A stretch of 64,000 bases of DNA from contig CAWBMV010000022.1 in the NCBI GenBank assembly GCA_963789955.1, positions 320,001-384,000 of the forward strand. The letters run 5' to 3'. The DNA is from an uncultured Candidatus Rokubacteria bacterium (lineage in GTDB: Bacteria; Methylomirabilota; Methylomirabilia; Rokubacteriales; CSP1-6). Numbering within the stretch: position 1 is the first letter of the stretch; every line of letters begins with the position of its first letter. Shown piece by piece: positions 12,564 to 39,377 of the stretch. A program made the translations under genes and the position numbers. The notes under the pieces were generated by a model. It was not told where the DNA came from. It worked only from the letters and a program-made list of their open reading frames with translations, and did no database searches.

Positions 12564-12908
12564 TCACTGCACGCGAACCGCGAGGTTGTTCACGACGCCG
12601 GCGACATGCTTCACGCTGCGGGCGATCTGCTCCGCGCGGGTGCGCATCTCGGCGTCCTCGACCGTGCCCGTGAGATAGACGGTGCGCCGGTCGGTATCGA
12701 CGCCGATCTTCGTCAGAGTGGACATCTTCTCCGCCGCGAGCTTGGCCTTGACCTCACTGGTGATCGTGGCGTCGTCGACGTTTTCACCCGCGGTCTTGCC
12801 GGTCGTCGACGTACAGGCCGTGAGGACGACCGCGAGGAGGGCCACGAGCGTCATCGTGATCGTTGGCGTGAAGACATTCGTTGGCGTGAAGACATTGAGT
12901 CGGCGCAT
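12564..12908 (-). CDS. BON-domain (OsmY-like) lipoprotein
   Basis: LTAC lipobox, DDATITSEVKAKL, VYLTGTV, VAGVVNNL. Confidence 0.9.
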   Translation of the reverse strand: MRRLNVFTPTNVFTPTITMTLVALLAVVLTACTSTTGKTAGENVDDATITSEVKAKLAAEKMSTLTKIGVDTDRRTVYLTGTVEDAEMRTRAEQIARSVKHVAGVVNNLAVRVQ

Positions 12909-12971
12909 CTCTTCCGTTCTCCTTGGTCCGTGAATGCACGGGCCAGCGACAGCCCGATGACAGGTGAAGGG

Positions 12972-12986
12972 GCAATCCGTGTGCCA
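12972..12986 (-). promoter_or_regulatory. sigma54 (-24/-12) promoter for the BON operon
   Basis: Minus strand TGGCAC-ACGGA-TTGC, consensus GG-N10-GC. Confidence 0.8.
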
Positions 12987-13079
12987 GCACTGACACACGC
13001 TCGAAGTGGCGTCACCACGCGGAAACAATGCGAAAACGATGAAGGCTCGGTTGGGGAGTCTCGAACGGACCGCCGAGGC

Positions 13080-13106
13080 GCGCAAACCTACCAGGTAATT
13101 CTTACG
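13080..13106. promoter_or_regulatory. Tandem putative activator sites (GGTAA-N3-TTACC-like)
   Basis: GCGCAAACCTACC (13080) and GGTAATTCTTACG (13094), 14-bp period, about 100 bp upstream of the sigma54 site. Confidence 0.5.
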
Positions 13107-13170
13107 AGGCGGGGGCCGGGCGACCGCGGCGGCTTCCGGGAGCTGCCGCCGCGTGGTCGCCGGCACGAGA

Positions 13171-13611: not shown

Positions 13612-13671
13612 CGCCGTCCTCCTTTCGTGGTGTGAGGCCTCGTCGACCGAGGCGCCACGTCTGTGCGACCA

Positions 13672-13686
13672 GCAAGAGAAGTGCCA
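13672..13686 (-). promoter_or_regulatory. sigma54 promoter
   Basis: Minus strand TGGCAC-TTCTC-TTGC(T), perfect consensus. Confidence 0.85.
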
Positions 13687-19900: not shown

Positions 19901-22900
19901 CTGTGCCTGGGTCCACGACAGGGTCGTGATGCGCTCGAACCTCGCCGGATCGCGATACTTGTCGGCCATGCCGAGCACGGCGGCTCGTGTGTCGGCGAGC
20001 ATCGTGGAGAATACGACGCGGCCGCTCTGCCCGGGCGCGAGCCGCAGCCGGCGCCTCAGGCTGAAGATCGGGTCGAGCACAAAGCCCGTCGTGTTGGAGA
20101 GTGGCCGGCCTTCGATCATCGACATCGGCGTGCGGATGCCGCGGCCGCGTCCCAGGAAGCGCCCGCGCTCCGTCTCGTACTGCGAGCCGCCGGTGCTGGT
20201 GCCCTCGACGGAGACGACGTGGGCGGCCCAGACGCGCGGCTCGTCCGGTGAGCGGGGCCGACGGGTGGCCAGGAGCGTATCGAGCTCGGCGACGGCCTCG
20301 GTCTGAACGAAGAGATTGGAGAACGCGGGATGGGCCGCGTCGTCGCGCGGCGGCGCCAGCACGATCTCGGCGTACGAAGTCACCTCGATCTCGCGCGCCT
20401 CGCTGCCGAGATTCGTCAGGGTCACGCGCCGGATCTCGGCGTCGTCCTCCGGCGAGACCAGCACCTCGAGCCGCGTCAGCAGATGGTCGTCGCGCCGCTG
20501 GATCTCGGCGCGGTCCTCCAGGAAGGTCACCTCGTAGCTGTCGGGCTCGACCCCCGAGGGCTGGAGGCCGGCCGACCAGACGGCGCCGCTTCGCGTGTCG
20601 CGCAGGAAGATGAACGTCCCCCAGGCGTCGCGCGTCGTGTCCTCGCGCCAGCGAGTCACCGCGAGGCCGCCGCAGTGACTGTAGCCGCCGCCCGCCGTGG
20701 TCATCATCACGAAGTAGCGGCCGTTGGAGAGCAAGTGCGTGTGCGGCACCGGATCGGACACGGACGTGAACCGCCGCGAGGTCGGCGCCTCGAGCGCGCG
20801 CGTGACCTCGTGCGCGGGCGCTTCCTTCGCGCGCGGGCGCATCACCGGCACGTCGCGCGGCGCGCGCTCCTGCAAGATCAGCTCGGTGGCCTGCACCATC
20901 GGCTGAGCGTGGAATCGCTCGCGCATGCGGCCGTCGAGCAGGACGTTGGCGAGGGCCACGACCGTCATGCCCTGGTGGTGAGCCATGTAGGTGTGGATCA
21001 CGGCGACGTCCGCGCCCTCGGGCAGGCGCTCGCGCGTGTAGTCGAGCGCCTCGTAGAAGCCGTACGGCCCGAGACCGCCGGCGCGCGCGATCTCGCCGAA
21101 GTTGCGGGCCGCCGCCGAGGGATAGACCATCGCGGCCAGCGCCGTCGCGTAGGGCGCGATGACCAGATCGTCCCCGAGCCCGCGCTCGAGCCCGAGCCCG
21201 GGCACGCCGAAGCTCGAGTACTGGTAGGTGAGGTCGAGGTCGCGCACGTTGTACGCGGATTCCGAGATGCCCCAGGGCACGCCGCGAGCCTTCGCGTAGG
21301 AGATCTGGCGCTGAACGGCCAGGCGGGACGTCTGCTCGAGCAGGCTGCCGTCGGGCTCCCGCATGACGAGCCCGGGCATCAAATACTCGAACATCGAGCC
21401 CGACCACGAGACCAGCGCGATGCCCGACTCGACCGGGGTCATCGGCCGCGCGAGCCGGAACCAGTGGACGGCCGACACGTCACCCCGGGCGATCGCGACG
21501 AAGCTCGTCAGCCGGGCCTCAGATGCCAGAAGATCGTAGCGACTCTCGTCGAGTGATCCGTCGGTGACGCGATAGCCGATCGCGAAGAGCTGGCGGGGTT
21601 CGTCGAACAGGAACGTGAAGTCCATCGCATCGAAGAGCTCGCCGGCCGTGTGCGCCGCGTTCTCCAGGCTCTTCATGAGCGCTTCGGCCGCACGCGCCGA
21701 GTCCTCGAGCGAGGCGATCACGGCCGTCGCGCGAGTCCGATCGAGCGAGCCGCCCGCCTTGTCGTCCGAGCTCTCCACCCATTCGGCGAGCTCGCGCGCC
21801 GCCGCTCGGGCCAGCTCCGGCAGATGGCCGAGCAGCGGCGGCCCGTCGAGCAGACGCGCGACGACGGTCCCGTTCTGGCGCTCGGGCGGGAGAGAGCGGC
21901 GGAGATCGTCGAGCCCTTCGATCCACGGCACGATCGCGTCGAGATCGCGCCGGTGGGAGGCGATCGTCGCCTGAGCGACGTCCGCCCACACGACGGCCTC
22001 GGCGCCCGTGTCCTCGGGAAGCGCCTTCGCGCGCTCGCCGAGCCCCCGGACGGCAGTCGCCATCTCGACGAGGCGGTTCGGCCACGCGTGCGAGCGTCGG
22101 AGGCTCCTGTCCCAGCGCGGCGCGGATCTCATCGACGGAGGTGCGAGCGTCGGCCGGAAGCGCGTCACGCAGCAGGACAAGCGCCGCGTCGATGCCACGC
22201 TGGACCTCGGCTCCGACGATCGGACGCTGGACGCGCTCGCGCGCGGCGACCGCGAGGACGCTGAGATGCCCGGCGAGATTGCCGCTGTCGACCGAGGACA
22301 CGTACCGCGGCTCGAGGGGCTTGAGGTTCTTCGTGTCGTACCAGTTGTACAGGTGGCCGCGATAGCGCTCGAGATCGCCGATCGTCGCCAGGGTGGCCCC
22401 GATCCGATCGATCGCGTCGAGCGTGCCGATGAAACCGAGGTCCCGCGCCGCCACCGCCGAGAGGAGATAGACGCCCATGTTGGTCGGCGAGGTGCGGTGG
22501 GCGACGACCGGCCGCGGATCGTCCTGAAAATTATCCGGCGGCAGCCAGTTGTCTTCGGCGGTCACGAACGTCTCGAAGAAGCGCCAGCTCCGTCGCGCCG
22601 CCGTCAGGATGATCTGCCGCTCGTCGGCGGTCAGCTGCTCGGGGGGCCGCGTGACCATCGGACGGCTGATCAAGCGGGCCACCGCGGGCGAGAGGGCCCA
22701 GAGGACGGCGAACGCCGCGGCGACCGCGCGCGCGTCTCCCGAGCTCGACGCGGCGATCACCACCGCGACGAGCGCCAGCACGAGGGCGCCCCACATCTTC
22801 GCGTACGTCCGGGCGAGATCGAGCCGGGCGCTCGACTTCACCTGCGCGGCGGTGACCCATTCGAGCATCCGCCGGCGCGTGACGACGAGCCGGAGCAAGG

Positions 22901-25557
22901 TGCGCCCGACCGCATCGGCCATGAGCCAGGCCTGGTGCGCGAGCAAGGTGAGCGCGAGCGCGATCTGCGCCGCGGCGAGCGCCACGGTCGTGCCGATGCC
23001 GCGCAGGTAGGCGCGCTTGGATCCGCCGGGCCGTCGCGGGATGAGATCGGTCGACACCGGGACCAGTGCCGGCACCGCGAGACAGAGCAGCACCAGCTTG
23101 GTCCACACCATCGGCGCGCCGGCCGGCAGGGTCCAGCCGAGCACGAGCGTGAGATAGGCGCCGGGAGCCGACAGCGTGCGCCTCAGATTGTCGAGCATCT
23201 TCCAGCGGCCGATCGTGGGAATCCGCGCCCGCGAGGCGCCGATCCCGGCCGCGCCGCGAATCAGCCACGGCAGCAGCTGCCAGTCGCCGCGGGCCCACCG
23301 ATGCTGGCGCGCCGCCGCGACCTCGTAGCGCGCCGGGAAATCCTCGAAGAGCTCGATGTCGGTGACCAGCGCCGCCCGCGCGAAGAGGCTCTCGAAGAGA
23401 TCGTGGCTGAGGAGCGTGTTCTCCGGCACCCGCCCCTCGAGCGCGCGCTCGAACGCGTCGACGTCGTAGATGCCTTTGCCGGTGTACGAGCCCTCGGCGA
23501 AGAGATCCTGGTACACGTCCGACACCGCGGCGGCGTACGGATCGACGCCGGCCGGACCCGAGAACACTTGCCGAAAGAACGAGGCTTCTCGCTCGGTGGG
23601 CAAGGTGGGCGCGATGCGCGGCTGCAGGATCCCGTACCCCTCGACGACACGCCCTTCGCGCGGCTCGAGCCGAGGCCGGTTCAGCGGATGCGCGAGCGTG
23701 CCGATCAGGCGCGAGGCCGCGCCGCGGGGCAGCTGCGTGTCGGCGTCGAGCGTGATCACGAAGCGAATCGCCGCCGGCACCTCGAGCGCGTCGCCGACGA
23801 ACGAGGTGTCGGTCGCGCCGCGCAGCAGGCGGTTGAGCTCGTGGAGCTTGCCGCGCTTGCGCTCCCAGCCCATCCAGCGGCCCTCGCTCTCGCTCCAGAG
23901 GCGCCGGCGGTGGAACAGATAGAAGCGTGCTTCACCGCCGGTGGCAGGACCGTGACGCCGGTTGAGCTCGGCGATGCCGGCCCGTGCGGCGGCCAGCAGC
24001 GGCGCGTCGTCGGGCGCGTGCTCCTGGGCCGAATCCGTCCAGTCCGACAGGAGCGCAAAGCGCAGCTCGCCGTCGTCGTTGGCGAGATAGTGGACGCCCA
24101 GCCGCGCGATCTGCTCGGCGATCTGCGCCGGCCCGGTGAGGAGCGTCGGCACGACCACGAGCGTCTTCAGCTCGAGCGGCACGCCGTCGGCCAGCTCGAG
24201 CCGCGGCAGGGCGCGGGGCGGCAGCAGCTCGACGATCGCGCGATTGACGAGCGCCGTCGCCGCGTCCGAGGCGGGCAGCGCCGCGAGCGCGGCGAGGACG
24301 ATCAGGAAGAGCAGGCTCACGCCGAGGGCATGGGTGAACAAGACCGGCAAACAGAGCAGAAAGCCGGTGACGATCGCGATCGAGCCGAGATAGCTCCACG
24401 TCGCCGAGGCCATGTAGGCGCGCGTGAGCCGCTGACGCAGCGACACCCGGTAGCCGAGCGCGTGCTCGAGGTTGGGACGCCCCTTCGAGATCAAGAAGTA
24501 GCCGAGATCCTCGGTGCGCCGCTCGCGGCTGCCCGCCAGATTCAAGGTCTGACGGGCCACGTCGAGCTCCGCGCGGTCCGACCCGCGGGCCAGATCCTCG
24601 ACGGCGTGGCGATAGCGGTCGCGGGTGGCGAAGTCCATCGCGCCGAACTCGCTCTCGGCGCGGAAGAGCCGATCGACCAGGCTGACCTTCTCGACGAAGT
24701 CGCGCCAGTCGAAGGTGGTCATGATGCGGAGGCTCGTGATCACGTTGCGCACGGTCACGTTCGCGGCCGCCTGCCGCTGGTGCTCCGCGCGGACGAGGTC
24801 GTGCGCGGACGTGCCGCGGGCGGCGAGGCGCTCGTCGAGCCAGCGCGTCGCCGGCGTGGTGACCGGGTCCTGATCGCGCAGGCGCTGGGAGAGCCGCACG
24901 GCGAACGTCGTGTTCAACGCCGCGTCGTCGATCGCGCGAAACGCCTGCGGATCGGCCGGGACATCCGTCTGACCCAGCAGGAGATTCGCGAGCTGGTCGG
25001 CCTCGAGCCGCGCCTCGCGGCGTTCCACGATCTCCACGGCCAGCCGTCGCAGGTTCTCGATCAGCGCGAGCCGGAGCGCGATCGGCACCGCCCAGAGCTC
25101 GCTGATGCGCAGCGCGTCCGTGCGCTGGAAGGCGAGCACGAAGCGCTGGAGCGTGACAGCGTCGAAGCGACTGTCCGTGTGGGCGACGTACGTCCACGCG
25201 AGCTCGAGCACGCGCGGCGCGCCCGGCGAGCGGCCCTTCGTCGAGGGTCGGCAGCTGGCGATAGAAGCCCCGCGGCAAGTCGGTGCGGATCTCGTTGAGC
25301 ACTTCCTCGACGATGTGGAAGTTGTCGACCAGCCACTCGGCGGCCGGGGTCGTCGCTCGCTCGTCGTCGATGACGGCGGCCAGGGTTTGGTAGCAGCGGA
25401 GCAGGACGCGTCCGCTTTCTCGCGTGCGCGACAGCAAGCCCAGCTCCGGGCGGCGGCCGGGTGAGACCCGGTGCCGTGCGATCGTCTCGGCTAGCTCCTC
25501 GAGCCGCTCGACGCTGAGGATCTCATCGCGAATAGGCTCTGCCCCCGAGAGCGTCAT
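16904..25557 (-). CDS. ndvB: Cyclic beta-1,2-glucan synthase (Cgs/NdvB/ChvB; GT84 + cyclisation domain + GH94), two frameshifts (~25225, ~22090)
   Basis: About 2880 codons in total; AEWLVDNFH, GWERKRGKL, LDADT, SHDLFE, RQHRWARGDWQ, PPDNFQ, YDLLASEARL, SWSGSMFEYLMP, GTGDWNDGM, ENGGQYTH, WTWYTGSAGW. Confidence 0.92.
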
Positions 25558-26838: not shown

Positions 26839-26980
26839 CTAGCTCGGCGCGCCCCCGGCTCCTCCCACCGCGAGTGGACTCGTGCGTGGCTGCCCAGGGG
26901 TGCGTCTGCGTTGTTCACGGTCGGCCGAGGAGTGGTCTACGTCTCCGCCGATCGATCTCACACAGAGGGGAGGTGAAGAC

Positions 26981-27247
26981 ATGCTCCGGATCATGTTCGT
27001 GCTGTTCACGCTCGTTTCGCTGCTGTGGATGTCGGCCGCGGCGATGGCACAGCAGGCGTCGATGATGAGCGATTGCGACAAGTGGATCGCCACGATCAAC
27101 GCCGAGGCCGGCGCTCGAGTCGACGAGGCCAGCTACACGGCCAAGCAGAAGATCGACGACATCGCCAAGATGTGCAAGGAAGGGAAGATGGCCGAGGCGC
27201 AGAAGACGTCCATGGATGCGATGACCCTGCTCGGGATCAAGCAGTAA
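26981..27247 (+). CDS. Small secreted Met-rich protein with two Cys
   Basis: SD GGGGAGG; Sec signal ending AMA|QQ; mature part of 65 aa has 6 Met and 2 Cys. Confidence 0.8.
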   Translation: MLRIMFVLFTLVSLLWMSAAAMAQQASMMSDCDKWIATINAEAGARVDEASYTAKQKIDDIAKMCKEGKMAEAQKTSMDAMTLLGIKQ

Positions 27248-27506: not shown

Positions 27507-28365
27507 ATGAAATTCGGACTGCACTCCGTCAACTTGCACACCTGCGGCTATCCCGACGCGGCCGCGCGCCTCGGCCGAGCGGCCGAGGCCGCCGGCTTCG
27601 AATCGCTCTGGGTCGCCGATCACGTGGTGCTGCCCGACCCGCCGGTGGCGGGGCGGCCGATGGCGCCGGACCAGCGGCTGCTCGATCCGATCGTGGCGCT
27701 GACGTTTCTGGCGGCGCACACCCAGCGCATTCGCCTCGGCGACCGGCGTGATCATCCTGCCGCAGCGCCAGGCGCTGGTGCTCGCCAAGCAGCTCGCCTC
27801 GCTCGACGTGCTCTCGAACGGCCGGCTCATCTTCGGGCTCGGCGTCGGCTGGTGCGAGCCCGAGATGCGCTCGGTCGGCGCGCCCTTCGCCGAGCGCGGC
27901 CGCGTGGCCGACGACTATCTGGCGGCGATGCGCGCGGTGTGGACGCAGCCCAAGCCGTCGTATCGCGGCCCGTACGTGGCGTTCGACGGCGTGCAGGCGA
28001 TGCCGCGCCCGGTGCAGACGCCCGTGCCCATCGTGGTCGGCGGGCGCACGGCGCCGGCCTACCGGCGCGCGGTGACCCAGGGCCACGGCTGGTACGGCTT
28101 CGGGATCAACGTCGAGGACACGCAGAAGATCGTCGCCACCTTGCGCGACACCGCCAAGAAGCACTCGCGGCCGGCCGAGCTCGGACGGCTCGAGATCAGC
28201 GTGACGCCGCCGGGCTTCGACGTTCCGGACAAGGCGACGCTCGACGCCTACGCGGCGGCCGGCGTCGATCGGCTGATCCTGCGACCGCGCCCGGAGATGG
28301 ACGCCGCGGCGCTCGAGCGCTTCGCCGCCGAGACCGGACGCGCGCTCGGCCTGCGGGCGGCGTGA
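27507..28365 (+). CDS. LLM-class (F420-dependent, Rv2161c-like) oxidoreductase, frameshift near 27740
   Basis: AEAAGFESLWVADHVVLP, DPIVALTFLAAHTQRIRLG|TGVIILPQR..LAKQLASLDVLSNGRLIFGLGVGW. Confidence 0.85.
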
Positions 28366-28372
28366 GGCGGCC

Positions 28373-29611
28373 ATGAAGATCGCGAGAGTCGAAGCGCTCC
28401 ATTGCGACGGCGGCTGGCGGCCGTGGACGTTCGTGCGCATCGAGACCGATACCGGCTTGATCGGCTGGGGTGAGTGCAGCGACAACCGGAGCCCGCACGG
28501 CATCGCCGGCTCGGTGCGCGACATGGCGGATCTGTTGATCGGCCAGGATCCGCGGCCGGTCGAGCGGCTCTACTGGGACATGCTGCGACGGATGCGCCAG
28601 AACAGCGGCGGCGTGTCGCACAAGGCGATGGCCGGCATCGAGCTGGCCCTGTGGGACATCAAGGCCAAGGCGCTCGGCGTGCCGGTCTACGAGCTCTTCG
28701 GCGGCCCGATGCGCGATCGCATGCGCCTCTACTGGTCGCACTGCGGGACGACGCGGGCGCGCATGGGGCAGTTCCTGGGCACACCGCCGCTGAAGACCTA
28801 CGACGACATCGCGGCACTCGGGCGCGAGGTGGTGAAGCGGGGATTCACCGCGCTCAAGACCAACATGGTGATCCCGGGCGATCCGGCCACCGTGTACTTC
28901 CCCGGGTTCGCCAGCGGCATCAACACCACCGACGGGGCGCCGACGGTCGAGATCCTGGACGCGATCGATCGCCTGATCGGCACCTTCCGCGAAGCCGTCG
29001 GCCCGAAGGTGGGCCTCTGCCTCGACCTGAACTACAACTTCCGCACGGAGGGCGTGCTGCGGATCGCCAAGCTGCTCGAGAAGTACGACATGCAGTGGGT
29101 CGAGTACGACAACTGGGATCCGGACGCGCTCCTGCAGATCAAGCAGTCGACGTCCACGCGGCTGGCCTCGTGCGAGAGCCTGGTGAGCTTGCGGCAGTAC
29201 CGGCCGTTTCTCGAGAAGCACGCGGTCGACGTGGCGATCATCGACGTGCCGTGGAACGGCTTCTCGCAATCCGTGCAGATCGGGCGACTGGCCGAAGCGT
29301 GCGAGATCAACATCGCCCCGCACAACTACTACAGCCACCTGGCCGACCTGCACTCGTTGCACCTCTGCGCGGTGCTCCCGAACGTGCGCATCATGGAGAT
29401 CGACATCGACGACGTGCCGTGGAAGGGCCCGCTCGTCACGCGCCCGCCGGTGATCCGCGACGGCCACATCTGGCTGACGGACGCGCCGGGCTGGGGCGCC
29501 GACGTCGACGAGCGCGTGCTGCGCGAGCATCCCTGGCCGCGGCCGGGGGACGGCGGGCCGCAGCTCTTCTACGGGATGGATCCGGGGCAGATGGCGGCGC
29601 GGCCGCGGTAA
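28373..29611 (+). CDS. Mandelate racemase / muconate lactonising enzyme family protein
   Basis: ETDTGLIGWGE, GIELALWDIKAKALGVPVYELFGG, KxN motif (ALKTN), metal ligands in LDLN / WVE / CES, APH. Confidence 0.9.
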   Translation: MKIARVEALHCDGGWRPWTFVRIETDTGLIGWGECSDNRSPHGIAGSVRDMADLLIGQDPRPVERLYWDMLRRMRQNSGGVSHKAMAGIELALWDIKAKALGVPVYELFGGPMRDRMRLYWSHCGTTRARMGQFLGTPPLKTYDDIAALGREVVKRGFTALKTNMVIPGDPATVYFPGFASGINTTDGAPTVEILDAIDRLIGTFREAVGPKVGLCLDLNYNFRTEGVLRIAKLLEKYDMQWVEYDNWDPDALLQIKQSTSTRLASCESLVSLRQYRPFLEKHAVDVAIIDVPWNGFSQSVQIGRLAEACEINIAPHNYYSHLADLHSLHLCAVLPNVRIMEIDIDDVPWKGPLVTRPPVIRDGHIWLTDAPGWGADVDERVLREHPWPRPGDGGPQLFYGMDPGQMAARPR

Positions 29612-29739
29612 GAACGAAGCGCGCTTCGCGTCTCGCCTCCAGGGCACTCTGCCCAGGACGTTGGGCAATACGCGGCGGGACGCCTGAGATGACCCGGGCG
29701 AATCGCGCTCGCAGTCAGCATCATCGACGAATCATCGGG

Positions 29740-29755
29740 TGGCATCGTCGCTGCA
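29740..29755 (+). promoter_or_regulatory. sigma54-type promoter for the secreted-protein operon
   Basis: TGGCAT-CGTCG-CTGCA (GG-N10-GC), 13 nt before ATG 29768. Confidence 0.55.
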
Positions 29756-29767
29756 CCTTGCTCGCGC

Positions 29768-32105
29768 ATGCCCAACATCGCGAGCTCACCCGTCAGAACG
29801 GCAGCACGACTGTCCCGGCCCGCGCGTCTCGTGGGCCTGAGTCTCCTGGTGTTCTTGCCGGCCGCGACAGCAGGTGCCAAGTGTCGCCGGCATCTCGCCG
29901 GCGGCTCTGGCACCGGTGAGCGTCTGGGCGAGCGGTTTTCTCCAGCCGCGTGGTGTCGTGGCGGACTCTGCAGGCGCGGTCTACGTGAGCGACCGCGCGG
30001 CCGGCACCATCACACGCATCGCTACGGATCAGTCCACGACCGTGCTGATGCGTGGACTGGAGCGACCGGTCGGCCTCGCCTTCGATCTCGAAGGCCGTCT
30101 GCTCGTCGCTGAGGAGCGAGCCGGCCGGATCACGCGACGCGAGGCCGACGGCTCGCGCACCACCTTGGTGTCCGGAGTCAAGCAGCCCCGGTGGCTCGAC
30201 GTCGGCGAGGACGCGACCGTCTTCGTCGCGGCTCGTCGGCTCACGAGGGGCACCGACCCCGAGCCCGACGACGAGTCGGTCGAGCCCGAGGTGATTCTGG
30301 CGCTCACGTCGACCGGCGCACTGACGGTCTTCGCTGACGGCTTCCGAGCCGTTCGGGGCATCGTGGCCGGCGACGGGATCCTCTACGCAGCGACGGACGG
30401 CCGTCGTGGGGAAGCGAGACCGGATGGTGTCGTCTTCCGGATTCCGATCCTGCCGGGCGCTCGCGCCGGTGTTGCCACTGCACTCGGCCCCACCGGCGCC
30501 TTCGTGAAACCGACGGCGCTGGCGCAAGACCGGTTGGGCGCGCTATTCGTGACGACCCAGGAGCTCAGCGTGGATGGCCAGCGCTTCAGACGTGCGCTCG
30601 CGAAGCTGCAGCCTGATGGCCCGGTCAGCCTGTTCGCGGGAGAGCTGGATCGCCCGCAAGGCCTGGCCTTCGACCCCGCGGGCCACCTGTATGTCGCCGA
30701 CGGAGCTTCGGGTCGAATCCTTCGCTTCCTCTCGCCACCCGCGCCCGAGCTCGATCCACTGGCCACGATCACGAACGCGCCCGCCGTCTCCGTGCGCGGC
30801 GCCGCGCTTCGAGAGTCACGAGTCGATGGTCGCCTCGACGGCGGAAGCGGTCGGTTCACGATCCAGAGTGGAACGGACGGCAGGTTCGCTGCTGACGATT
30901 CCGTTGACGTTGAATGCCGAGAACACGATCGAGGTATTCGTGACTGCCCATCGTGGTCTCGGCCTGACCGGCGCGCCCGCCGAGGTGACCGTCCGCCACG
31001 ACGACGTACCGCCCGAGACGACCTTGATCAGCGGACCGGTCAGCCCCAGCGACGGGACCACGGCCGCATTCACGTTCACGGGCACCGACGACGTCACCGC
31101 GAGCGGACGAGTTGCGGTTCGCGTGGCGCCTCGACGGCCGACCTTTCGGCGAGCTCTCCGGCGCGCGGTCGGTCACACTCACGGATCTCCCGGACGGCGT
31201 CCACACGTTCGATGTCGTGGCACAAGATAGCGCGGGGAACGTCGATCCCACCCCGGCGACCAGGACCTTCACGGTCAGTCGGTCTCGGATCGCGCTGGTC
31301 GAGCCCGAGCCCGGAGCCACCTTGCCTGCCGGTTCCCGCCTCGTTCGAGGCACGGTCGTGACCGGAGGGCAGGAAGTCGCGGTGACCATCAATGGGATCG
31401 CGGCCGCGGTCTACGGAGGCACGTTCGCCGCGCTCGTTCCGCTGAGCCCGGGCACGAATCGTCTCCAGATCGTCGCCACGACGGCCGCCGGCGTCGTCGC
31501 GAGCCAGGACGTGCCCGTCACCGTGATGGCCGCGCCGGACGCGCCGTTCCTGCTCGTCAGCAGTCCCGCGGGCGGCGTGAGTCCGCTGACGGTGTCCTTC
31601 ACGTTGCTCGGCGTGCCGGATTCGGCGACGATCCAGGCCGACTTCGATGGCAACGGTACGATCGACTTCACGGGCCAGCGCCTGGCCGAGCAGGCCTTCA
31701 CGTATCGTGCAACCCGGTCTCTTCGTCCCCATCGTGACGGTCACCGATGCCCAGGGGCAGCGAACCACGGTCCCCGGCGTCGTTCAGGTCTTCGATCGGG
31801 CGAGCCTCGACGCGCTGCTGCAGGCCAAGTGGGCCTCCATGCGTGACTCGTTGCGCCGCGGCGATATCGCCCAGGCCCTGACGCAGATCTCCGAGCGCTC
31901 GCGGAATCGCTACCAGCAGGCGTTCACCGCGCTCCTTCCTGATCTGCCGGCCGTCGACACGATTCTCACCGATGTCCGATTCGTTCGGGCTCGCGGTCTG
32001 GAAGCGCTCTTCGAGATGAGCCGCACGGATGCCGGTATGCTCAAGTCCTTCGAGGTGCGATTCAATGTCGACGCCGACGGATTCTGGCGCGTGCGGTCGT
32101 TCTGA
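29768..32105 (+). CDS. Secreted NHL/beta-propeller + Ig-like + PKD protein with a C-terminal alpha/beta domain (four frameshifts)
   Basis: Signal peptide; repeats PRGVVADSAGAVYVSD, PVGLAFDLEGRLLVAE, PQGLAFDPAGHLYVAD; Ig-like DGVHTFDVVAQDSAGNVDPTPA; PKD-like DFDGNG..FTY|QPGLFVPIVTVTD; tail LQAKWASMRDSLRRGD...DADGFWRVRSF. About 780 codons. Confidence 0.75.
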
Positions 32106-32115
32106 GATCTCGCTG

Positions 32116-32709
32116 ATGCGCTCCGTTCTGATCGCGCTGATGTTCCTGATCTCGCTCCTGATGCCTCGATGGACCGAGGCGGCCGGGCCCTGGCAGGCGC
32201 AGGTGGTCAGCGCCGATTCAAAGCAGCCACTCGAGGGCGTGGTGGTGCTGGCCTGGTGGACGCGACACGTTCGCAGCCTCGGAGGTCCGAGCGAGGAGTA
32301 CCGCGATTCGCAGGAAGTCCTGACCGACAAGGACGGCCGCTTCACGATCGAGTCGCGCTGGTTCTTCAGCCTCAATCCGCTGGTGTTCTTCCGCGGGCCG
32401 TTCATCGCGATGTTCAAGTCGGGGTACGGGGATTACGGATGGCCCGGCTACACGGGATCGGAGACGTGGCCCAACGAGAAGCGCAAGGCGCTTCAGACAG
32501 AAGCTCAGCTGCTGCAGCTCGATGGGATCGTGCTGGAGATGCCGGTCTTGCCCAACACCGAACAGAGAGCGAAGTACCTCGACGCATCTCGAGGCCCGTA
32601 TTTCGGGCGTTCCTCACGACAGACGCCCGCTGATGCAAGAGGCGATCGATGGAAGAACGGAAGGCGCTGGAATCCCGTGGCCGGATTCAGCGGTAGGGAG
32701 GTCTCGTGA
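32116..32709 (+). CDS. Small exported protein with a carboxypeptidase-regulatory-like beta-sandwich (C-terminus probably frameshifted, true stop near 32696)
   Basis: Signal peptide, then WQAQVVSADSKQPLEGVVVLAWW...EVLTDKDGRFTI...FKSGY. Confidence 0.7.
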   Translation: MRSVLIALMFLISLLMPRWTEAAGPWQAQVVSADSKQPLEGVVVLAWWTRHVRSLGGPSEEYRDSQEVLTDKDGRFTIESRWFFSLNPLVFFRGPFIAMFKSGYGDYGWPGYTGSETWPNEKRKALQTEAQLLQLDGIVLEMPVLPNTEQRAKYLDASRGPYFGRSSRQTPADARGDRWKNGRRWNPVAGFSGREVS

Positions 32710-35089
32710 TCCAACCGGAGAAACTCGTCGCGACCGTGTGTGCAGCCGGAGTGCTGGGCGCTGTTCGGGACGGCGGACGTTGCGCTGTCGTACGCGCCCG
32801 CCACCCACGCCGAGATCGGCAGGATCGCCGTCGTCCGCTCGGATCTGGACGCGATCTTGAAGGCTCAGTATCGCGTCGACCGCGGTGCGACGTTCGTCGT
32901 CAACGGAGAGACTGTTCAGACCTGGATCGCGATCGGCGCGACGCGCGAGGATTTCCCGGCGACCCGGTCTCTCAATCACTTTCACAGTCCGCTGAAGCCA
33001 TGGGCGAGCGCCGGCGGACTTCTCGGCCAGTCGTCCGTCTACTGGCAGCAGAACCCGGATCAAGGCCTCGGCGGCACATGGTCATGGCCTGTCGCTCGTC
33101 AGCGATTGTTCGAGTTTCTGACCCTGCCGACGCCGGCGGCGCGGGAAGGAGCGCTTGCGGACACCGCTCGGGCTCTCGGGCAGGTCATGCACATGGTTCA
33201 GGATGCGGCGTCACCGGCCCACACGCGCGAGGATCCGCACCTGCTCCACGACGGATACGAAGCTCGTATCGAGGAGCTCCGAGCGAGTCGCGATGCGACG
33301 CTCCGGTCCCGCTTCCAGGCGTTCCTGGATGCTTCATCGACGTTGCCGTCGACCTCGATCTTCACGCCGACGGGGGATCCGCGGGCGCCGGTTCCGGTCG
33401 CGAGGCTCGTCGACAGCGACCGGTACGCGGGCACCGTGCCATCGTATTCGGTCGGGGCCGACGCTGGCCTGGCCGAGTACACCAGCGGTGGCTACGTGAG
33501 CGACGACACGATCTTCCTGGGGTTCGCGCTTCCGCGCCGCGAGAGCCTGGGCCCGGCGGTCTTCGATCCGCCGGCCGACACTCCGGGTGCGCGGCGCTAT
33601 TTCCCGAAGACGACCGATGGCGACACGGTCAGTCACTTCGTCGCCGAGGGAGCGTTGTACGAACGTCTCCTGTTTCGCGGGCAGCTGGTCGGCGGGTTCA
33701 TGCTCGACGACAAGGTCTACGAGGACTACGCGGCTCGATTGATCCCTCGCGCGGTGGGCTATTCGGCCGGCCTCCTGAACTACTTCTTCCGAAGCAGCTT
33801 CGACTTCACCGTAGACGTGATCGGCAACGATGCGAGCGCGCGGCTCCTGACGATCAGCATCCCGCCCGAGCTCACCGCGGAGACGATGGACGGGACCTTC
33901 ACCCTGTACGCCGAGGACAAGAACGGTCTGCGGAGCGCCGTCGCCGGAGCGTCGATCACGACCACGCTATTCCGGGGAGCGTCTACCCAGGCGATCTTCA
34001 CGCCCGTCTCCGGCGTGCGTGCATACGTGCTCGTGTTTCGAGGCACGCTGGGCGCCGAGTCCGACGCGGTGACCGGCAAGGTCAAGCCGATGGGCCCGTT
34101 CGTGGCCGCGTTGCAAACGACGGCCGAGTTCACCGGCGAAGCGACGCGCGCGACCGTGACGGAGGTCGACAACGCGTCGACGCTCATCGTCATGGAGACG
34201 CTGTCGAAGGACGCGCGGCAGCAGCGCGCCAAGGGATCGTTCTTTTCGTCCACGAACGATCCCGGGCAGCATCTCAAGCGCGTATCGCTGGAGTTCGATC
34301 CCAGAATCGTCGGCGCGGCGCCGGTCCGACTGCTTCTGGACGACATCGATGTCGGCGTCGCATGGAGCCGAGAGGGCACGCCCCTCGAGAATCCCAGCCG
34401 ATGGGAGGTCCGAATCGACCTGCCGGTGTTCTTCGGCGGCGGGGGGATCCTCGTGCCGAACGTCCCGCGGTTCTTGGCCGTCGAGACCCTGGAGGGGACC
34501 ACGATCAGGACCCCGCTCGTCTGGTGGCGCAGCGTGTCCTCGGTCAACGAGGCCCGAGGAGGCCGGCGAATCCGTGACCGGGTGTCCGCTGGAGCTCCAG
34601 TGCGAACAGGTGGTCAGCAACAGTACCGTGCTGCACGGACTCGTCTTCTTCGGCGACGGGAACGGCGAGGGGCGTGACACCACCTCCTCCGGCCAGCGCC
34701 AGCCCATGACCGCGCCGCACACGGCGGTCGGCTTCATCCCGACGGGCGTGGTCGCGGGGTACAGCGTGGGAACCGACGAGCAGACCGGAAGCCTCAACTG
34801 CTTTGCCGGGTGTGTGCCCGCCGCTTCGTGCACGGCCAGCACCGTCAGGGTCTTCGCCGAGTCGCGAGCGGAGGGGCGTGTGTGGATAAAGGACGAATTT
34901 TCGATCAGCTCCAGTACTCTGAGTGGCGTGCATACGGTCGCGAACGCCTGTGCCCGGCCGGCCGCGGGTCAGCCCGTCGCCCCTGATCTGCCGGAGCTGA
35001 GATTCCGGCGTGACTACTTACCGGCGGAGCAGAGCCGATTTCAGGAGTTCGGGGTGACACCGCCCGAGCACGAGATCACGCTCCGATGA
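32706..35089 (+). CDS. Secreted zinc-dependent phospholipase C / S1-P1 nuclease-fold protein with C-terminal beta-rich domains (frameshifts ~32760, ~34560)
   Basis: SD GGGAGG; signal ALS|YAPATH; GATRED, NHF, HMVQDAASPAH (H-x3-D-x5-H), HDGYE (H-x3-E). Confidence 0.75.
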
Positions 35090-35658
35090 ACGCTGCGTCT
35101 ACATGGACGGCGCGGGGCCGACTGCACCAGGCGCTGCTGGTCTGCGTCGTTCTGGTCGGTGCGGCCGGCTGCCTCTATCCCGGCGCCGACGTTCCCTACG
35201 TCCAGACTCCGACCGACGTCGTCACCGAGATGCTGCGGCTCGCCACCGTCGGCCCGAACGACGTCGTCTACGACCTGGGCTCGGGCGACGGGCGCCTGGT
35301 GATCGCGGCCGCGCGTGATTTCGGCGCGCGCGGTGTCGGCATCGAGATCGATCCCTCGTTGATTGCGCTGAGCACGGACGCGGCGCGGCGGGCTGGCGTC
35401 GGCGACCGCGTGACGTTTCGCGCGGACGATCTCTTCGAGACCGATCTCTCGGACGCCACCGTCGTGACGCTCTATCTCTCGCGCTCGATCAATCAGCGAT
35501 TGCGCCCCAAGCTCCTGCGCGAGCTGCGGCCGGGCGCGCGCATCGTCTCGCACAATTTCGACATGGGCGACGACTGGATGCCGAGCCAGACCAAGCAAGT
35601 CTCGTCGCGCGATCGTCTGGTGACGGTGTTTCTCTGGGTGATTCCGCCGAAATCGTAA
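35086..35658 (+). CDS. Class I SAM-dependent methyltransferase with a lipoprotein-like signal
   Basis: DVPYVQTP, VVYDLGSGDGR, GVGIEID, ATVVTLYL, GARIVSHNF; ATGA overlap with the upstream gene; GAAGC. Confidence 0.85.
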   Translation: MNAASTWTARGRLHQALLVCVVLVGAAGCLYPGADVPYVQTPTDVVTEMLRLATVGPNDVVYDLGSGDGRLVIAAARDFGARGVGIEIDPSLIALSTDAARRAGVGDRVTFRADDLFETDLSDATVVTLYLSRSINQRLRPKLLRELRPGARIVSHNFDMGDDWMPSQTKQVSSRDRLVTVFLWVIPPKS

Positions 35659-35882: not shown

Positions 35883-36930
35883 ATGCGGTTCTCGCCACAG
35901 GCTCTTCGAGCGATCGAGCGGCGCAAGTTCTTGAAGCTCATGGGAGGCGCGGCGAGCGGCGTCATGGCGCTCGGCAGCGGCGGCTCGTTCGTGCGCGCGC
36001 GCCGCGCGGAAGCGCAGGTGGCCCTCACGCCCTTCGTCGACGCGCTGCCGATTCCCGACGGCATCAGGCCCAGCGGCACGTTCGACGGCGATCCGCTCTT
36101 TCAGGTGACGATGCAGGTGTTCAGGCAGAAGCTCCATCGCGACCTGCCGCCGACGACGCTCTGGGGCTACAACGCCCAGTACCCCGGCCCCACCTTCGAG
36201 GCGCGCCGAGGCCGGCCCATCGCCGTGCGCTGGATGAACAATCTGCCGAACCGCCACATGTTCCCGATCGACAACACCTTGCACGGCGACGAGGCGGGAC
36301 AGCCGGCGGTGCGGACGGTCGTGCACCTGCACGGACACAAGGTGTTGCCGGAGAGCGACGGCTATCCGGAGGCGTGGTTCACGAACGGCTTCGGGCAGAC
36401 CGGGCCGTTCTTCGAGCAGCGGATCTACCGGTATCCGAACGACCAGGCGGCGACGCAGCTCTGGTACCACGACCACGCGCTCGGCGCCACGCGGATCAAC
36501 AACTACGCCGGGCTCTCAGGCGTCTACCTGTTGCGTGACCAGGTCGAGGGCAATCTAAATCTGCCCGACGGGGCGTTCGAGATTCCCCTGATCATCCAGG
36601 ATCGGTTCTTCAACGCCGATGGCTCGCTGCTGTATCCGGTCGAGGACGACGGTGGTGACCCGGATCCGCGCGTGCCGCCCGTCTGGATCCCCGAGTTCTT
36701 CGGCGATACCGTGCTGGTCAACGGCTGATGTTCAAGGTCGGCAAGCGCCACAGCGGCCGCGACGACAGCGAGATTCCCCGATCGCGGGCGCAGGTGCCGC
36801 TGCTCGATCCGCGGGCCTCGGTGAAGCCCCGCGATCTGGTGCTGAGCGAGCTCGACTCGGCCGATCCGTTCGAGAACCCGATCATCGCGCTCATCAACGC
36901 GCCGTGGTCCGATCCGGTGACCGAGACGCC
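35883..36930 (+). pseudogene. Tat-exported multicopper oxidase (CotA/bilirubin-oxidase-like), internally deleted and truncated
   Basis: RRKFLK Tat motif, VVHLHG and WYHDH (first two Cu motifs), PEFFGDTVLVNG; then jumps to MFKVG..DDSEIP..WSDPVTETP; the C-terminal HPxHxH and HCH motifs are absent. Confidence 0.8.
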
Positions 36931-38227
36931 GAGCCTGGTCGTGCTCCTGCTGGCGACCGGCGCCGAGCTGCTCGCGCGAACCCAGGCGATGAGCGGTGCG
37001 GCGCTCGCCGCGAGCGTCGCCGCCGTCCCGAGCGTCGTGACGCAGACCCACCTGGGCCAGATCCTCGCAGCGCGGCTGGTGGCGGTCGTAGTCGCCCTGC
37101 TGCTGGCGTTCGAGGCGGGCCGCGCGTTTCGCGCCTTCGTCCTTCTCGTCGCGCTGGCCATCGCGCTGTCGATGAGCCTCACCGGACACGCGGCCGACTG
37201 GGGCGACGTGACGCTCAGCGTCGGCGTCGACTGGGTTCACGCCGTGGCGGCGTCCGCGTGGACGGGCGGTCTCATCGCGCTGGCGTTCGCGGCCGGGCGC
37301 CGCGGGGCTGGGTGGTCACGTGAGTCGCTCGCCACCGTCGCGCCGCGCTTCTCGCGGCTGGCCGGGCTCTGCCTGCTCGCGATCGTCGTGACCGGAGGCT
37401 ACAACGCGTGGGCCCAGCTGGGCGGCCTCTCGCGGCTGTGGAGCACCGCGTACGGTCGGGTCCTGATCGTGAAGCTTCTGATCGTCGCGGTGCTGGTGTG
37501 GCTGGGGGCCGTCAACCGCTACGCGCACTTGCCACGGCTCGCGCCGGCGCAGGCCGTCCGCGGCGTCGGCGCGCGGGCGTTCCAGCATGTCACGCCTCGC
37601 CCTCTTCGGTCCCAGCCGAGGCACGCCGTCAGTGCCGGCGGAGTCGCAGCTTGTCGCGTACGTCACGATCGAAGCGCTCGTCGGCCTCGCCGTGTTCGCG
37701 TGCACGGCCGTCCTGGGCGAAGTCACGCCGGGGCGCCACGTCCAGTTCGAGCGCAGGCCGACGACGCACGTCGCACCGGTCGCGCGACCCGGTGGGGGCG
37801 GACCGCGGTCGGGCACCGTGACGCCGCCGCGCGGGGACGCCGCACACGGACGAGCGGTCTTCGGCAGGCTCGAGTGCGCGACGTGTCACGCGATCCCCGA
37901 CACGCAGTTCTCGGCGCCGATCCGACCGGGGCCTGACCTGGCCGGGATCGGCGGACGCCACCCGGGCGAGATCGTCGAGTCGATCATGAACCCGAACGCG
38001 CAGATGCTCGACGGGCCGGGCTACACCAATGAGCAGGGGCTGTCGACGATGCCGGACTATCGAGACCAGCTGACGGTAGGGGAGCTGATCGACCTGGTCG
38101 AATACCTGAGAGGCTTCGAAGCGCCCGCAGCACCCGCGCCGCCTGCGACGCCCGGACGCCGATGCCGGCGCCCCGCCGCGCCGCCCCGGCGCCGGCCACG
38201 CCCGAGCAACCGACGCCCACGCGGTGA
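36931..38227 (+). CDS. CopD-family membrane protein fused to a C-terminal monoheme cytochrome c (N-terminus lost; frameshifts ~37585, ~38155)
   Basis: SLTGHAADWG, WVHAVAASAWTGGL, RFSRLA, TAYGRVLIVKL (CopD); GDAAHGRAVF..CATCH..GPDL..ESIMNPN..MP (cytochrome c). Confidence 0.75.
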
Positions 38228-38246
38228 GCCGAGCTACGCGCGAGCG

Positions 38247-39377
38247 TCAGGCGTAGACGCGCTCGATCCGGCTCCCGACGCGACAGACGATCTCCCACGG
38301 GATCGAGCCGATCGTGTTCGCCATCTCGCGCGCGTCGATCGTGTCGCCGTCCTGGCTCCCGATGAAGACCACCTCGTCGCCGGGTGAGGCGTCGAGCCCG
38401 GTCACGTCGATCATGATCATGTCCATGCAGACCGAGCCGATGATCGGTGCCCGCCGGCCCCGGATCAGGACCGAGCCGCGGCCGGCCAGCCGCAGATCGA
38501 GCCCGTCGGCGTAGCCCGCGGGCACGATCGCGATCGTCGTCGGCTTCTTCGCGGTGAAGCGCGCCCCGTAGCCGGTGACCTCGCCGGCGCGCATGCCCTT
38601 GACCGCGGTGATGCGGCTCGCCAGGGTCATCACGGGCGCCAGCGGGATCGTGGACGTCAGCGGCGGCGGCACGATGCCGTAGAGCAAGAGGCCCGGCCGC
38701 ACGCGATCGAACCACACGCGCGGGTCGCGCACCACCGCGGCACTGTTGGCGGCGTGCCGGAAGCGCGGCCGCGCGCCCAGCGCCTGGAGATCGGCGAGGA
38801 CCCGATCGAAGCGCTGGCGCTGCTCGTCGAAGAGCGACGATGCGGGGTCGTCCGCGGTCGCGAAGTGGGTGAAGACGGCGTCGAGATCGAGATTCTCGCT
38901 GCGGAGCAGATCGGGGAGGGTGCGGCGCAGGTTGTCGAAGCGAAACCCGAGCCGGTTCATGCCCGTGTCGATCTTCAGGTGATAGCGTACGCGCTGCTTG
39001 TACCGCGCGGCCGCGGCCTGCACGGCGCGCGCCGCCCCCGGCGACGAGATCGTCGGCGTCAGCCGGCAGTCGAACAGGCCGTCGAGGTCACTGACGCTGA
39101 GCGCGCCGAAGATGAGGATGTCGGCGCGCACGCCGGCCGCCCTCAGGGTGGCGCCTTCCTCTATATCCGCGCAGGCCAGCAGGTCGGCGCCGGCATCCTC
39201 GAGCGCCCGCCCAACCTGTGCCGCGCCGTGACCGTACGCGTTCGCCTTGACGACGCTGATGACACCCGGCGGCGAGGCCGGCCGCTCGCGCTTCAGATGC
39301 TCGCCGATCGCCCGATAGTTCGCCTTGAGCACCTCGAGATCGACGCGCGCGACCGTCGGCCGAACCCGCTCACCCAT
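38247..39377 (-). CDS. alr: Alanine racemase
   Basis: VVKANAYGHG (PLP Lys), HLKIDTGMNRLG, HAANS, RPGLLLYG, GYADG, CMD. Confidence 0.95.
   Translation of the reverse strand: MGERVRPTVARVDLEVLKANYRAIGEHLKRERPASPPGVISVVKANAYGHGAAQVGRALEDAGADLLACADIEEGATLRAAGVRADILIFGALSVSDLDGLFDCRLTPTISSPGAARAVQAAAARYKQRVRYHLKIDTGMNRLGFRFDNLRRTLPDLLRSENLDLDAVFTHFATADDPASSLFDEQRQRFDRVLADLQALGARPRFRHAANSAAVVRDPRVWFDRVRPGLLLYGIVPPPLTSTIPLAPVMTLASRITAVKGMRAGEVTGYGARFTAKKPTTIAIVPAGYADGLDLRLAGRGSVLIRGRRAPIIGSVCMDMIMIDVTGLDASPGDEVVFIGSQDGDTIDAREMANTIGSIPWEIVCRVGSRIERVYA

Follow-up and report, generated by a model that had tools for sequence, protein, structure and literature searches.

The window analysed here, a stretch of 64,000 nucleotides (nt) from an uncultured Candidatus Rokubacteria bacterium (contig CAWBMV010000022.1), raises the question of what is encoded by four same-strand genes, A to D, that follow a sigma-54-type site, and that a first-pass annotation of the letters alone had taken for an exported effector, immunity and carrier system built around an enzyme of the phospholipase C (PLC)/P1 fold. 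The tight packing it described is indeed present, with gene A at 29768-32105, gene B at 32116-32696, gene C at 32706-35089 and gene D at 35086-35658, all on the + strand and D coupled to C by an ATGA overlap, and export signals were seen on all four, as judged by eye. The conserved unit consists of three genes, A, B and C. This three-gene system is real and widespread, and it is apparently undescribed; we infer the toxicity of C, its substrate and the role of A. Because of the synteny of the three genes, the fold of C with its conserved metal ligands, the exchange of alleles between the end of B and the start of C, and the orphan cassettes found upstream, we favour the reading that this is probably an inverted, Sec-exported polymorphic toxin-immunity system.

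The co-occurrence of the A tail, B and C that had been anticipated was found across phyla. Among 126 distinct loci, which are not independent of one another, B stood ahead of C, at a distance of up to 2.6 kb, in 97 of the 102 with at least 800 nt available upstream, and the A tail lay upstream of C in 81 of the 85 with at least 1,400 nt. C was detected in 79 and B in 70 of the 201 genomes sampled from the phylum of the window, counts that include three unpublished genomes (G029, G058 and G101) on which no other result depends, and of 301 genomes in the phylum to which a Desulfobulbaceae record belongs, 20 had C. A profile search (E 1e-30 or better), whose profile takes in some tail columns, placed the C family in 3,129 clusters at 50% identity. 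The C records came from Methylomirabilota, sulfate-reducer-like bacteria and Nitrospirota, with further records named Syntrophaceae, Smithellaceae, Desulfosarcina and Deferrimicrobiaceae; a Nitrospinota record and a single Flavobacteriales record may be mis-binned, since only 1 of 51 Nitrospinota genomes had a match. An Atlas search with C returned unnamed clusters only, most often from Myxococcota, and tblastn against the window's own genome found no paralog of either A or C. The neighbourhoods of the cassette varied between loci, and the locus was stable inside the window's clade. Plasmids, phages and viral contigs searched for the cassette gave no match, and carriage by a mobile element is thus unsupported.

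In the window itself, A, B and C are interrupted by eight single-base breaks, four in A (about 29870, 30890, 31102 and 31705), two in B (about 32583 and 32649) and two in C (about 32759 and 34567). All eight are absent from the contigs of run X1, and each of them, that at 32583 excepted, is also absent from contigs of X15, X19 or X3, these being independent runs with Illumina-type contigs of near-identical strains. Close relatives carry intact genes of 773-777 amino acids (aa) for A, about 196-199 aa for B and about 793-799 aa for C, the intact C orthologs being up to 97% identical to the C of the window. Because the breaks vanish in independent contigs and the orthologs are intact, we read the frameshifts noticed at first pass as sequencing errors; real pseudogenes are ruled out on the same grounds.

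Both the predicted structure of C and its structural matches agree with the proposed PLC/P1-fold protein carrying a long C-terminal extension. A signal peptide (32706-32790, by eye) precedes a PLC/P1-fold domain (32791 to about 33790) and an immunoglobulin (Ig)-like domain (to about 34090), after which a lineage-specific tail begins. The model of the first 432 residues, a helical domain with an Ig-like sandwich, has a predicted local distance difference test (pLDDT) score of 93.6, and its top six structural matches all have the PLC/P1 fold (Z 12.7-17.2), the next row standing at Z 8.4. PLCs of B. cereus, clostridia and Listeria rank first (Z 15.7-17.2, including Z 17.2 with a root-mean-square deviation (rmsd) of 3.7 over 215 aligned residues and Z 17.0 with an rmsd of 3.0 over 211), followed by S1/P1 nucleases (Z 12.7-13.4). 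In the mature C of the window the predicted ligand residues are Y1, H6, D54, H63, H134, D138, H144, H150 and E157. Across 305 aligned stretches, active-site conservation was 272/272 for H8, 284/284 for D56, 286/286 for H65, 294/294 for H140, 295/295 for D144, 294/295 for H150, 292/295 for H156 and 280/293 for E163, so that the eight predicted zinc ligands are 96-100% conserved, in the order of zinc PLC, to which they were matched by sequence order. At residue 1, Tyr, Leu or Phe usually takes the place of Trp, and the last His-Glu spacing is 7, compared with 4 in the known ligand set, of which His14 is presumably a further member. The zinc PLC ligands named in PMC10420013 are Trp1, Asp55, His69, His118, Asp122, His128, His142 and Glu146. 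The position directly before mature residue 1 of C is in most cases occupied by Ala, Ser or Gly, the pattern of a signal peptidase site, and C therefore seems to be made without a propeptide. Known PLCs are made with one. The Zn_dep_PLPC family (PF00882) matched weakly in 19 of 36 C members, with best E values of about 0.003-0.0036 and all below the gathering cut-off (15.6 bits against 26.8 for the C of the window), and none of the 36 had a Het-C Pfam match.

B, described at first pass as a small periplasmic beta-sandwich protein, was confirmed as a small exported beta-sandwich (export signal by eye), with a CarboxypepD_reg match in 12 of 34 homologs and variable C-terminal helices, and is a candidate immunity protein or inhibitor of C. 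No family model passed its cut-off for the B of the window, for C or for the tail region of A, and sequence searches of solved structures with C or B gave no match. The supposed interaction of B with C received weak support from complex prediction: in a three-chain model of the C head, the A tail and B, the B-C score was 0.46, against 0.00 for the best control and 0.00 when C was replaced. The runs share at least 55% of contacts, with a partner pLDDT of at least 73. The tool grades the 0.46 result weak; of 157 solved pairs 116 reached the score mark, as did 2 of 215 mismatched ones, but those that did so at scores of 0.60 or lower were 18 solved pairs and both mismatches. The model thus weakly suggests that B binds C.

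B-like genes were also seen in other settings. The window's own genome has a lone, distant, exported B-like gene (G000:C36:9050-9790, equivalent to L163:6048-6791; E 3e-9) with neither A nor C nearby. At L164:6516-9063 (G053:C39), four B-like domains are spread over three tandem genes that adjoin toxin-antitoxin genes, and no C was found in that genome. B is fused straight onto a C-type tail, the enzyme head missing, at L168:782-2305, and to NHL repeats at L165:5571-7364, and a remnant at L172:5890-6470 retains B and a scrap of A, with no C.

Where, then, does the system vary? The tails of C, suspected at first of being polymorphic, do differ widely between lineages (71 clusters among 322 sequences, some of them truncations), but allele exchange sits elsewhere, at the catalytic N-terminus of C and the C-terminus of B. 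Toxic C-terminal tails are unsupported, given that no enzymatic toxin domain was found in 61 representatives of the 71 clusters; 53 of these had no Pfam match and 8 had repeat or binding domains, one of them together with TcdB_toxin_midN. The hypervariable block (32520-32965, + strand) covers the 3' end of B, the C signal peptide and the first 60 residues of mature C, and DNA distance is highest at 32550-32850. In 11 orthologous loci, a set that omits the window, L001, L002 and L012 because their segments are broken or short, the fastest change fell in the B end and C residues 3-60 (nonsynonymous divergence (pN) of 0.29 and 0.26, compared with 0.06-0.20 elsewhere), and these two parts co-vary (Mantel 0.60, p 0.0005). 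Tree tests on 15 of the 17 aligned sequences gave the stretch from B end to C start a history of its own: the left flank comes close to accepting the tree of the right one, and vice versa (log-likelihood differences (delta lnL) of 7 and 15), whereas the flanks reject the block tree (196 and 229) and the block rejects the flank trees (90 and 83). The contigs of X15 have no cover at about 32460-33090, a gap that spans the block and proves nothing on its own.

Heads have also been exchanged on conserved tails. Proteins with near-identical tails have first 100 residues as low as 28-69% identical; P0447 and P0429 are 96% identical in the tail and 28% in the first 100 residues, and P0459 and P0458 are 100% identical in the tail, 98% in the rest of the head and 68% in the first 100 residues. 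Immunity proteins occur in arrays, and the arraying of B raised at first pass was observed as tandem units of B with a C start. Orphan C-start fragments lie upstream in 6 of the 126 loci, five of them paired with a B of their own, and extra units of this kind stand upstream of an intact pair or form a run of four (L064, L112, L113, L137/L149 and L138). The four diverged tandem units are in L112, where the B copies are 64-76% identical. In one clade a second paralog of B is stably kept, with 32-41% identity to the B adjacent to C (L033, L041-L043, L074, L075, L088, L109 and L123).

We propose that C would be exported by Sec and that signal cleavage would free residue 1 and complete the three-zinc site, thereby arming C in the periplasm of its own producer. 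B, encoded just upstream and likewise exported, would bind and block the catalytic head. C would leave the periplasm, probably through the type II secretion system (T2SS), and hydrolyse a phosphodiester on neighbouring cells, most likely a membrane phospholipid, the variable tail serving as a binding arm. New specificities would arise when recombination replaces the block of B end and C start, or the whole head, and displaced pairs of B and C start would accumulate upstream and retain the old immunities. As the weakest step of this proposal, A may be a carrier or tether that binds the conserved part of C through its own NTF2-like end.

Several observations count against this proposal. The co-varying parts of B and C are adjacent in the DNA, so that linkage alone can account for the Mantel result; B residues 1-60 likewise track C residues 181-240 (0.56), and the tree of the B end and that of the C start each reject the topology of the other, though both accept the joint tree. 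The ratio of nonsynonymous to synonymous change (pN/pS) is below 1 in every segment, with maxima of 0.43 and 0.38, so positive selection is unsupported. The orphan arrays are known from metagenome assemblies alone, and most of the 17 listed loci with at least two B genes fall in the one clade with a second paralog and are thus not independent. One of the three complex runs scored 0.00, and the searches of plasmids, phages and viral contigs gave no match. Several genomes have B-like genes without A or C, which may belong to other families, the fold being common. Finally, in L010, L027 and L142 an A stands beside a C with intact motifs and without B, and no B was found in G203 and G248, the genomes of two of these three loci, whose incomplete assemblies could conceal a distant B.

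Some of these points would be expected if C were a phosphodiesterase, placed at the surface or secreted, that scavenges nutrients or remodels the envelope, with B as its folding chaperone or safety cap and the variation reflecting escape from phages or predators, or relaxed constraint. Loci without B and a pN/pS below 1 agree with such a function, as do the stability of the locus in the window's clade, sigma-54 control with a dedicated palindrome, and the variable parts of A and C, which are binding-type modules (propellers, Ig, CARDB and beta-helix domains). However, it predicts neither the tandem units of B and C start, nor the replacement of whole heads on identical tails, nor the retention of B after loss of C (L172), and we consider it unlikely. 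We regard as improbable a non-lethal system of self-recognition or adhesion, in which matching B and C alleles form a lock and key at the cell surface, with the enzyme serving to release or modify a molecule there. The allele exchange also fits that idea, A and the tails of C are adhesin-like, and the related Het-C fold serves fungal non-self recognition according to the main text of PMC3482391, whereas the strictly kept catalytic site suggests that hydrolysis is the output and B is small, exported and arrayed in the manner of immunity proteins. That C is a toxic S1/P1-type nuclease or nucleotide phosphodiesterase, or is aimed at eukaryotic grazers, is very improbable even though S1/P1 nucleases match its fold too and a helical enzyme with a beta-sandwich recalls clostridial alpha-toxin, because phospholipases C score higher, an exported B argues for a target outside the cytoplasm, and a eukaryote-only target would need no diversifying partner.

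How the proposed toxin-immunity system relates to known ones can be read from its parts. T6SS (type VI secretion system) Tle/Tli pairs combine a membrane-attacking lipase with arrays of exported immunity genes. C and B may share this combination of a membrane-attacking enzyme with exported immunity-gene arrays, but the enzyme fold is another and C has a Sec-type signal peptide (by eye). By eye, no T6SS genes were seen among the 25 neighbourhoods listed, of which 15 neighbours were scanned against Pfam; outside the locus, the window's genome has matches to a T2SS secretin and to T6SS VipB, and in one lineage (L030/L125) the cassette lies directly behind a T2SS operon. C resembles zinc PLC (B. 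cereus 1ah7, Listeria 8cqm and clostridial alpha-toxin 1olp; PF00882) in its all-helical PLC/P1 fold, in metal-ligand order, save for residue 1, and in the beta-sandwich that follows, and differs from it in being 13-17% identical and below the Pfam cut-off, in its residue 1, and in carrying about 90 additional residues, tails that vary and partner genes that are fixed. Against the PADLOC anti-phage profiles neither B nor C had a match, A had a weak one of repeat type, and D had generic methyltransferase matches only.

Polymorphic toxins are defined by a conserved N-terminus joined to diverse toxin domains at the C-terminus (Zhang et al. 2012, PMC3482391). Compared with the Sec-exported MafAB type in the main text of that work, the present system likewise has signal peptides for export (judged by eye), an upstream partner gene, an adjacent small partner and recombination-driven diversification with standalone cassettes, but its enzyme is N-terminal, its partner and orphans are found on the upstream side, and what is swapped are alleles of a single enzyme family, so that the cassette logic is turned round. 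We keep it out of the polymorphic-toxin family because the defining variable C-terminal toxin domain is lacking, the enzyme of C being N-terminal. Tox-HET-C, listed there as a PLC/P1-fold toxin domain with a similar motif order, has an entry that names no immunity protein and an example exported by a Photorhabdus virulence cassette (PVC) system, and the C members scanned lack its Pfam match. In a full-text search of main texts we found no description of the system and, as at first pass, no named system of this architecture, although Additional File 1 of PMC3482391 could list the architecture. Searches for polymorphic toxins are aimed at C-termini that vary and at immunity genes lying downstream, and would miss a system built the other way round. 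If our reading is true, it would provide an antagonism mechanism for abundant uncultured soil bacteria and a large new zinc phospholipase branch, possibly with a natural protein inhibitor of that enzyme fold. It is, in our judgement, an evenly balanced question whether this is a bacterial conflict system of three parts and reversed polarity that forms a class not yet described, comprising a zinc phospholipase warhead at the N-terminus, an exported immunity protein that is encoded upstream and takes the place of the propeptide of known PLCs, orphan cassettes of immunity gene and warhead start upstream, and an NTF2-tipped carrier. It would then serve as a main weapon in Rokubacteria and in further uncultured lineages of soil and sediment, and its natural specificity pairs would number in the thousands.

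The domains first assigned to A were found in part. Behind a signal peptide (by eye), the NHL propeller and Ig-like domains score above the Pfam cut-off and the distinct C-terminal domain is present, but the PKD-like domain gave only weak matches, below the cut-off (E 0.005-0.03) and in 2 of 3 intact orthologs. The conserved C-terminal domain (about 31790-32105) is NTF2-like (Z 10.7, rmsd 2.7, 97 aligned), a fold that is uninformative on function because of its many near-tied matches; the N-terminal part varies, with 11 clusters in 50 sequences. An Atlas search with the A tail gave no usable match, and in profile comparison B and the A tail were unrelated. Short exported copies of the NTF2-like tail stand between A and B at L115:8618-9025, L179:732-1136, L180:3-398, L046:1408-2346 and L126:10964-11782, and the A tail may be able to function on its own, perhaps in the role of a second inhibitor or of an adaptor. 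At L029:6945-8212 and L048:1650-2231, A and B are separated by one or two small exported proteins of a different type, and the two scanned had no Pfam match.

D encodes a class I methyltransferase whose N-terminus looks, by eye, like that of a lipoprotein, and its L005 ortholog scores 134 bits against the archaeal-type protein-lysine methyltransferase model NF041081 (cut-off 200). The coupled methyltransferase gene described at first pass is thus there, but it is no part of the system: D follows C in 14 of 78 loci, all within the window's clade, which rules it out as a core member, and it is a clade-specific passenger. The impression of a less biased codon choice also proved correct, the G+C content at third codon positions being 0.78-0.86 in A to D and 0.90-0.97 in five flanking genes (read in frame). 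DNA identity to the ortholog L002 is 79% for the operon and 86-92% for flanking genes, save two stretches of about 80-82%. After D, at 35883-38387, come genes for a multicopper oxidase, a CopD-like protein and cytochrome c; the oxidase frame stops at about 36700, where the CopD-like sequence starts, and the spacer between D and the oxidase differs in the contig of a relative. Genes at 21519-25557 (- strand) and 27507-28376 (+ strand) are likewise split between frames, which fits sequencing errors throughout the window. A small exported protein with two cysteines and no Pfam match, highly conserved in appearance, is encoded at 26980-27247 (+ strand).

The sigma-54 site ahead of the operon held up as well. 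A -24/-12 promoter-like site at 29740-29755 (+ strand) is one of two matches to the sigma-54 consensus in the window (0.45 expected), and the window's genome encodes RpoN. The pattern occurs in 16 of 37 upstream regions (about 1 expected by chance), two of them within coding sequence and discounted; all 8 distinct close orthologs whose upstream DNA is long enough have retained it, and it is present in 6 loci of other lineages, most other lineages being without it. Sigma-70 promoter or terminator signals were not clearly above chance (5 found, 2.7 expected). The start codon of A follows the site by only 12-17 nt across orthologs (12 nt for the ATG of the window), which suggests a leaderless mRNA. 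About 70 nt upstream of the site lies a conserved palindrome, TGCCCA-N6-TGGGCA (29650-29667), with an extra half-site, GGGCAC, beside it (29642-29647). In the upstream regions of 10 orthologs, two of them identical in sequence, the palindrome aligns and is largely conserved; it is a candidate enhancer site for a sigma-54 activator. Its one perfect copy in the 6.8 Mb genome is that ahead of A, and a genome search for a regulon of palindrome and sigma-54 site gave 6 imperfect candidates in 730 matches (1-2 mismatches), none convincing. A second sigma-54-type site, at 13671-13686 (- strand), stands upstream of a small BON-domain-like open reading frame (12564-13166; label by eye).

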